Of a stretch of 64,000 nucleotides of DNA, positions 38,538-39,822 are shown piece after piece. How positions within the stretch are numbered: the stretch's first letter is position 1; every line of letters starts with the position of its first letter. The notes under the pieces were generated by a model, which saw only the letters and a list, made by a program, of their open reading frames with translations, did no database searches and was not told the DNA's origin. A program made the translations under genes and the position numbers. The DNA comes from Escherichia coli (GTDB lineage: Bacteria; Pseudomonadota; Gammaproteobacteria; Enterobacterales; Enterobacteriaceae): assembly GCF_003334305.1 (NCBI RefSeq), contig NZ_QOWS01000015.1; one strand, 5' to 3'.

Positions 38538-38664
38538 GCGAGCGAATCTTTCGTGCTATTCGAGTCATATTCTGAAATATCCAGCGGATCAAGAAAATTC
38601 GTTGGATATTTTTTTTGCATGGATAAAATTATCGCCTCTAAAGTATGTAATAACAGGGAATGTG

Positions 38665-39706
38665 ATGAAAAAAGTTTTATTACAAAACCATCCTGGGAGC
38701 GAGAAGTATTCTTTTAATGGCTGGGAAATATTTAATAGTAATTTTGAACGGATGATTAAAGAAAATAAGGCCATGCTGCTTTGTAAGTGGGGGGGTGTAT
38801 TTAACATGTGTTGTCGCTGTAATGTTTGTATTCGCAGCGATAACATCCAACGGTTTGAATGAAAGAGGCCTGATTACTGCGGGATGCTCTTTTCTTTATC
38901 TATTAATTATGATGGGGCTTATTGTTCGGGCCGGTTTTAAAGCAAAAAAAGAACAACTGCATTATTATCAGGCTAAAGGTATTGAGCCGCTCAGTATCGA
39001 GAAGTTACAGGCGCTACAATTGATCGCACCTTATCGATTCTATCATAAGCAATGGTCTGAAACGCTGGAGTTCTGGCCGCGAAAGCCTGAACCTGGCAAA
39101 GATACCTTCCAATATCATGTGCTTCCTTTTGACTCGATCGATATCATAAGTAAAAGACGCGAGTCTTTAGAGGATCAATGGGGTATCGAAGATAGCGAAA
39201 GTTATTGTGCCTTAATGGAGCATTTTCTTTCTGGCGACCATGGAGCCAATACCTTTAAAGCAAACATGGAGAAAGCCCCAGAGCAGGTTATCGCCTTGTT
39301 GAATAAATTTGCTGTTTTTCCCTCAGACTATATCTCTGATTGCGCTAATAATCGCTCCGGTAAATCCTCGGCGAAGCTAATATGGGCGGCGGAATTATCA
39401 TGGATGATCTCGATATCAAGCACAGCTTTTCAAAACGGGACAATTGAAGAAGAACTGGCCTGGCATTATATAATGCTTGCTTCTCGAAAGGCGCACGAGT
39501 TGTTCGAAAGCGAAGAAGATTATCAAAAAAATAGTCTAATGGGATTTCTTTACAGGCATATCTGCTGCTATCGCAGAAAGTTAACGGATGCTGAACTTGA
39601 AGCGTGTTATCGTTACGACAAGCAGTTTTGGGAGCACTACAGTAAGAAATGCCGTTGGCCCATAAGAAATGTTCCCTGGGGAGCATCATCCGTTAAATAC
39701 TCATAA
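38665..39706 (+). pseudogene. ynjI: ynjI (DUF1266 inner-membrane protein) disrupted by +1 frameshift in a G7 tract
   Basis: Two ORFs (38602..38862 and 38795..39706) in adjacent frames; removing one G at 38789-38795 fuses MKKV...KWG to VYLTCVV..., giving 346 aa as recalled for K-12 YnjI. Confidence 0.65.
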
Positions 39707-39720
39707 ACGCCTGAAATTTT

Positions 39721-39814
39721 GCCGGGGGCGCTGCGCTTGCCCGGCCTACATTAGAGCGTAACTGCAATGAATTGTGCCCATTTGTAGGCCTGATAAGCGT
39801 AGCGCCATCAGGCA
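39721..39814. repeat. REP/BIME element (two inverted REP units) between ynjI and gdhA
   Basis: GCCGGGGGCGCTGCGCTTGCCCGGCCTACA and TGTAGGCCTGATAAGCGTAGCGCCATCAGGCA match the E. coli REP consensus. Confidence 0.75.
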
Positions 39815-39822
39815 TTTACAAC

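Follow-up and report, generated by a model that had tools for sequence, protein, structure and literature searches.

Sequence and reading frame of ynjI

The window (the whole 64 kb stretch of DNA that was analysed) contains ynjI, with topB upstream and gdhA downstream on the opposite strand. YnjI is an inner-membrane protein, the promoter of which is activated by BglJ–RcsB and influenced by H-NS/StpA (PMC3950696). The features of the locus are as follows.

38665..39706, + strand: ynjI pseudogene, DUF1266 inner-membrane protein gene (1042 nt versus 1041 nt in K-12)
38665..38862, + strand: ORF1, with ATG at 38665 and TGA at 38860–38862; predicted truncated product of 65 aa
38789..38795, + strand: G7 homopolymer, the run named in the sequence-only reading of this DNA
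38789..38799, + strand: hypervariable segment, allele G7TGTA (11 nt), +1 relative to the ancestral 10 nt G5TTTTA of K-12
38795..39706, + strand: ORF2, the remainder of ynjI in the +1 frame (303 codons, fully open)
38796..38796, + strand: T interrupting the tract; G in all nine nearest relatives, or deleted on alignment against G8TA strains
39164..39679, + strand: part coding for DUF1266 (PF06889), residues 167–338 of the repaired protein
39272..39272, + strand: A7-private substitution, A here and G in the nearest relatives; E203K in the repaired protein

Positions 38785–38800 read AAGTGGGGGGGTGTAT and positions 38785–38805 read AAGTGGGGGGGTGTATTTAAC. The product of ORF1 is predicted to comprise 43 native residues followed by 22 out-of-frame residues. 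Both transmembrane stretches and the DUF1266 domain are encoded within ORF2; the DUF1266 part lies 3′ of the frameshift, so that translation starting at ATG 38665 does not reach it. Removal of one G restores a single 346 aa product with no stops inside it, which differs from K-12 YnjI (WP_000756910.1, 346 aa) at six residues and which is matched by the Pfam DUF1266 model over the full model length with an i-Evalue of 1.1e-24. The native frame is thus broken relative to the intact orthologues of 343–346 aa (K-12, Escherichia sp. MOD1 and Pseudocitrobacter), as defines a frameshift pseudogene. Independent initiation of ORF2 at GTG 38795 was considered and set aside: the sole purine-rich stretch available is the G run itself, which abuts the codon and leaves no spacer.

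The sequence-only reading had proposed that a G7 run at 38789–38795 splits ynjI by a +1 shift into two ORFs in adjacent frames, and that deletion of one G fuses them into a product of 346 aa, the length of K-12 YnjI. The run was found at exactly these positions, the two ORFs (65 aa, then 303 codons in the next frame) were recovered and the fused length agrees with that of the K-12 protein. The implied contrast of G6 in K-12 with G7 here was wrong: K-12 MG1655 reads AAG TGG GGG TTT TAT (K W G F Y), i.e. G5TTTTA, and encodes a 346 aa product. G7 in K-12 as well, which had been named as an observation that would count against the reading, was likewise not found, though K-12 does not carry G6 either. 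A simple G6-to-G7 model was discarded on these grounds and because the one-G-deleted sequence has no exact match in complete genomes: the repaired G6TGTA allele gave zero exact matches in 3486 ynjI-bearing genomes, the best match being A7 itself at 98.9% with one gap.

The G7 run is the only run of at least seven G or C in the 64 kb window. Dinucleotide-preserving shuffles gave an expectation of 4.9 G7 or C7 runs per 64 kb versus the one observed, and the notion that the run is statistically surprising was dropped. The significance of the site lies in the break of the reading frame and not in the existence of the run.

Source strain and assembly

Window positions 14001–64000 match E. coli strain A7 (NZ_CP028767.1; orangutan faeces) at every base. 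The ynjI sequence is 100% identical to A7 locus AOY58_RS12495, which already carries the PGAP label 'frameshifted' and which is the sole pseudogene among 51 features in 50 kb of the A7 assembly. The G7TGTA allele was seen in A7 only, the band of at least 99% identity consisting of 11 records (A7 plus about ten half-length matches), and the G count in A7 rests on one assembly.

In strain A28, which stems from the same sequencing project as A7, an extra G frameshifts the conserved msrB gene at the equivalent of window position 30424. This is probably an indel error of the assembly and calls for caution with homopolymer calls in that data set.

Alleles of the tract

Alleles were read from representatives of each identity/length class and from 53 metagenome contigs; numbers of exact matches refer to about 3484 complete genomes, and each includes about 10–20 half-length matches. 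A comparison of tract length across E. coli genomes, which the sequence-only reading had put forward as a check, returned a range of G6 to G11 variants beside G5TTTTA.

G4T4A: out of frame; one metagenome contig
G5T4A: in frame; K-12 type, ancestral; 2054 exact matches
G7TTA: in frame; intermediate
G4AGGTTA: in frame; interrupted
G6TA: out of frame
G7TA: out of frame; 52 exact matches
G8TA: in frame; 460 exact matches; intact WP_000756942.1
G8A: out of frame
G9TA: out of frame; 189 exact matches
G10TA: out of frame; 109 exact matches
G11TA: in frame; 31 exact matches; 347 aa, WP_001724703.1
G11A: out of frame; 24 exact matches

With G11TA as the query, about 936 genomes fell into the poly-G class versus 2548 in the K-12 class; G5TTTTA accounts for about 73% of ynjI-bearing E. 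coli and runs of G6 to G11 followed by TA or A account for about 27%. The metagenome contigs comprised 38 with G5T4A, eight with G8TA, three with G9TA and one each with G7TA, G8A, G7TTA and G4T4A; judging by their names they are mostly short-read assemblies, and those with G9TA are of low coverage (1–4×). Genomes of the poly-G type are in frame in roughly 470 cases versus roughly 320–400 out of frame, figures that may in part be inflated because many complete genomes are long-read assemblies in which lengths of G8 to G11 are error-prone. These proportions were also considered as a test of selection and set aside as not decisive, given shared ancestry and possible assembly errors.

Strain AHM21C2872I carries G4AGGTTA, in which a synonymous GGG>GGA change leaves the gene in frame and the product intact (WP_021556881.1). 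This looks like a second, independent interruption that stabilizes a G7 run, parallel to the T in the window. One match to the ynjI region comes from a record designated a plasmid rather than a chromosome, perhaps through mis-assignment of the replicon.

Ancestral state and nearest relatives

A protein-guided scan of one genome per species yielded neither E. albertii nor E. fergusonii but two true outgroups, Escherichia sp. MOD1-EC7003 (91% protein identity) and Pseudocitrobacter vendiensis (82%), which suffice to polarize the change though not to build a fuller outgroup series. Both carry G5TTTT, so the G run was lengthened within E. coli. The same scan returned YnjI fragments 100% identical to E. 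coli from Bacillus coahuilensis m4-4 (a 926 nt contig) and Alkalicoccobacillus porphyridii (a 266 nt contig), which are almost certainly E. coli contamination of these assemblies.

The nine nearest genomes differ from the window at about 3–4 positions in 24 001 nt (window 27000–51000); five of them were aligned directly (3–4 differences) and four were judged to be similarly close by their BLAST scores. Six of the nine carry G9TA and are annotated as frameshifted: 41 (Brazilian beef), TUM12355 (chicken meat), WL164 (patient, China), A28 (echidna), H15 and NCTC9088. The remaining three (FCI51, DETEC-E601 and TUM1887) carry G8TA and encode the intact WP_000756942.1. Relative to the G9TA strains the window shows three differences, at 31569 (A for G), 38796 (T for G) and 39272 (A for G), so that the tract itself differs only by the T at 38796 and is of equal total length. 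In the alignment of complete ynjI sequences, a single haplotype of informative SNPs over 1 kb bears G8TA, G9TA, G10TA, G11TA, G11A and G8A, which indicates that the tract changes length faster than the flanking sequence.

Two of the three differences that separate A7 from these relatives over 24 kb fall inside the 1042 nt of ynjI (binomial P for at least two of three = 0.0055). This clustering could reflect relaxed constraint, a small patch of recombination or chance.

Loss of ynjI in E. coli and selection

Between species ynjI is under purifying selection, with dN/dS values of 0.14 against Escherichia sp. MOD1 and 0.08 against Pseudocitrobacter. Within E. coli it has been lost by several routes. 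A W246* nonsense mutation (TGG>TAG; window about 39401–39403) occurs in complete genomes and in metagenome contigs (loci L007, L012, L019, L036, L038, L054 and L066); it is found in several haplotypes on both the G5T4A and the G8TA/G6TA backgrounds, which implies recombination or recurrent mutation. Further lesions include stops at codons 20 and 240 and second frameshifts; of 21 poly-G-type sequences in which the gene is complete, about nine have additional stops or frameshifts. Strain E4 has an IS1 element in place of all but the last 96 nt of ynjI, and insertion of IS10 into ynjI has been described in laboratory-evolved strains (PMC10044804). About 1936 of 5426 complete genomes (about 36%) have no ynjI between topB and gdhA (window 38538–39822); in these the topB–gdhA match spans 1986 nt versus 3201 nt with the gene, examples being strains 131, UPEC69 and F11. 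In strain JNU an IS621 element lies between ynjI and gdhA.

The gene is thus dispensable in nature, and the pattern of loss fits relaxed selection and decay at least as well as it fits a maintained contingency locus.

Origin of the A7 allele

The allele in the window is, with good confidence, a genuine loss-of-function allele of ynjI that arose by a +1 change in a derived, slippage-prone poly-G tract spanning codons 42–45. From the observed sequence, frame break, allele series, near-identical relatives and ancestral state we infer the following order of mutational steps, with slippage as the mechanism and with loss of expression as the outcome.

The ancestral G5TTTT would have given rise to a longer G run by T>G changes next to the run, to G7TT and then to G8T (Phe44>Gly); the in-frame intermediates G7TTA and G8TA imply such stepwise substitution at run-adjacent bases. 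T>G substitutions in this position are of the kind that may be made by transient misalignment at homopolymers, and in E. coli the bases adjacent to runs are substitution hot spots, partly via this route (PMC8510543; bioRxiv 10.1101/346874). Once the run had reached at least eight Gs, replication slippage would have produced the G6 to G11 variants with the gene in or out of frame. The longer a run in E. coli, the higher its indel rate, the rise being exponential; in K-12, 216 runs measure 8 nt, 19 measure 9 nt and a single one measures 10 nt (PMC8510543; bioRxiv 10.1101/346874), so that the G9 to G11 tracts of ynjI equal or exceed the longest K-12 runs.

The A7 lineage would then have inherited the out-of-frame G9TA, after which a single G>T at 38796 would have broken the run into G7–T–G. 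Neither the length nor the truncated peptide would be altered by this step, since GGG>GGT is synonymous (Gly) in the shifted frame. Translation from ATG 38665 is predicted to end after 65 codons, with neither the transmembrane stretches nor the DUF1266 part made and the gene consequently off. The pure run is seven rather than nine nucleotides, and reversion by slippage should therefore be much rarer than in the relatives; judging by the dependence of slippage on run length, the interruption has probably made the change less reversible and ynjI in A7 is probably an effectively locked-off pseudogene.

G9TA followed by G>T is the simplest route to G7TGTA. Insertion of a T into G8TA or duplication of GT in G7TA could each have produced the same sequence in a single step; these alternative parents leave the outcome unchanged, as all three routes lead to an out-of-frame gene.

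Alternative explanations

The sequence-only reading had offered three causes for the split gene: a genuine frameshift, slipped-strand variation and a homopolymer sequencing error. The genuine frameshift is the best supported of these, six of the nine nearest relatives sharing the total length of the tract in the form of G9TA. An error would mean that A7 in truth carries an in-frame allele such as G8TA or G6TGTA and that the extra base or the T was introduced in the consensus. Homopolymers are the classic place for errors in long-read consensus sequences, and the extra G in msrB of A28 comes from the same project. A miscall of G7 is nevertheless unlikely because the +1 length is shared with six independent assemblies of near-identical genomes from different laboratories and because the run is shorter and interrupted; a T within a G run is atypical of a miscalled homopolymer length, and the A7 assembly is clean locally, with ynjI as its only pseudogene over 50 kb. 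We therefore regard an assembly artefact as very improbable, and the A7 frameshift is most likely inherited and real, as judged from these comparisons. Recoding of an inherited frameshift is less credible still. Full-length YnjI would in that case be made by +1 ribosomal frameshifting, with re-pairing of tRNA-Gly on G GGG GGG, or by slippage of RNA polymerase. Re-pairing of tRNA-Gly in the +1 frame is indeed feasible on GGG GGG G, and no stop interrupts the frame that follows. By sequence, however, the shift site shows no recoding signal: the A site holds neither a stop nor a rare codon (the next 0-frame codon is GGT), the arrangement is not prfB-like, and the frameshifted configuration is not conserved, most orthologues and the outgroups being in frame. 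Transcriptional slippage, for its part, is known mainly from A/T runs of nine or more. Taken together, these points leave recoding as an extremely unlikely source of YnjI in A7.

Slipped-strand variation, as the third cause, held for the tract family at the level of the population, one SNP haplotype carrying lengths from G6 to G11 and both G8 and G9 being present in strains identical over 24 kb. The family has several features of a contingency locus. A simple-sequence tract lies in the ORF (G7 here, G6 to G11 in related alleles, at codons 42–45), its length differs among close strains (G8TA in three, G9TA in six and G7TGTA in one) and the frame toggles with it, G8TA and G11TA being annotated as intact and G7, G9 and G10 as frameshifted. 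Active phase variation in A7 itself would require slippage of G7 to G6 (or G9), upon which a subpopulation would make full-length YnjI (K W G V Y L T…). The rate at which the family changes length relative to the flanking SNPs, the presence of in-frame and out-of-frame lengths among near-identical strains, the 303 codons that remain open downstream and the purifying selection on ynjI between species (dN/dS 0.08–0.14) are in keeping with such switching. Against it stand the pure run of just seven, given that the indel rate drops exponentially in shorter runs, the working mismatch repair of E. coli, and the absence of the in-frame G6TGTA from 3486 genomes. Many poly-G-type alleles moreover bear further inactivating lesions, and about 36% of genomes have lost the gene altogether, as would be expected of decay more than of a maintained switch. 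Phase variation in present-day A7 is accordingly improbable. A wider proposal is that in commensal and livestock lineages, roughly a quarter of the E. coli with ynjI, a true G8–G11 contingency tract has evolved that switches a BglJ–RcsB-controlled DUF1266 protein at a useful rate despite intact mismatch repair, A7 being a locked-off derivative in which the switch was frozen by the G>T change; this seems to us rather doubtful, if somewhat less so. The lengths found among near-identical strains show hypermutability, which falls short of reversible, selected switching. In the literature searched on ynjI or on poly-G phase variation in E. coli no description of this tract was found; a survey of homopolymers in Escherichia lists only a 'DUF1266 domain-containing protein' among the neighbouring genes tabulated in its supplement (PMC8928963).

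The best explanation is thus an ordinary inherited frameshift pseudogene that is already annotated in A7. What was added to the sequence-only reading is that the run is part of a poly-G tract, derived and hypervariable, that about a quarter of the E. coli with ynjI carry, and of which the window holds a unique, interrupted derivative of the G9 form.

Implications

For annotation, the consequence is that the inactivation of ynjI in A7 is most likely genuine and due to an inherited +1 length rather than to a miscalled G7, and that K-12 does not provide a G6 counterpart. More generally, the natural alleles present a homopolymer that was apparently built and then dismantled in a mismatch-repair-proficient species, the steps being visible as adjacent substitutions that lengthen the run (G5TTTT to G8T), slippage that spreads it over G6–G11 and interruptions (G7–T–G and G4–A–GG) that stabilize it. 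The site is a practical trap for long-read assemblies and for counts of pseudogenes, because its G9 to G11 tracts match or exceed the longest runs of K-12, and it may serve as a ready-made natural reporter of slippage rates in wild E. coli. Should switching prove to be frequent and selected, it would provide a first clue to what DUF1266 membrane proteins do. Were the tract a contingency tract, ynjI would be a chromosomal phase-variable gene of E. coli governed by a mononucleotide repeat, of which the literature searched gave no description.

Comparison with known systems

The A7 allele resembles the homopolymer frameshift pseudogenes of enterobacteria (labelled 'frameshifted' by PGAP) in that one base gained or lost in a mononucleotide run disrupts an ORF that is otherwise complete and in that the gene has also been lost by other routes in the species. 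What sets it apart is the origin of the run, which arose from the ancestral G5TTTT within E. coli and attains G9 to G11 in many strains. With the poly-G contingency genes of Campylobacter jejuni, Neisseria and Haemophilus, ynjI shares a G8–G11 tract in the 5′ portion of a gene for a membrane protein, length variants that toggle the frame, and on and off lengths among near-identical strains. Unlike in those systems, mismatch repair in the E. coli host is intact as far as is known, many ynjI alleles are further inactivated, the gene is often deleted and the allele in the window is interrupted as G7–T–G.

The run-adjacent changes from TTT to GGT to GGG, together with changes near the end of the run, match the hot-spot class of transient-misalignment (dislocation) mutagenesis as known from Kunkel and from the mutation-accumulation work of the Foster laboratory, although in ynjI the process is deduced from natural alleles (the intermediates G7TTA and G8TA) and not directly observed. 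Within E. coli, the O-acetyltransferase gene neuO of strain K1 is likewise turned on and off by the length of a repeat. The neuO gene is prophage-borne, its repeat unit is a heptanucleotide (7 nt) and its phase variation has been shown experimentally, whereas the tract of ynjI is chromosomal and mononucleotide and is known from sequence.
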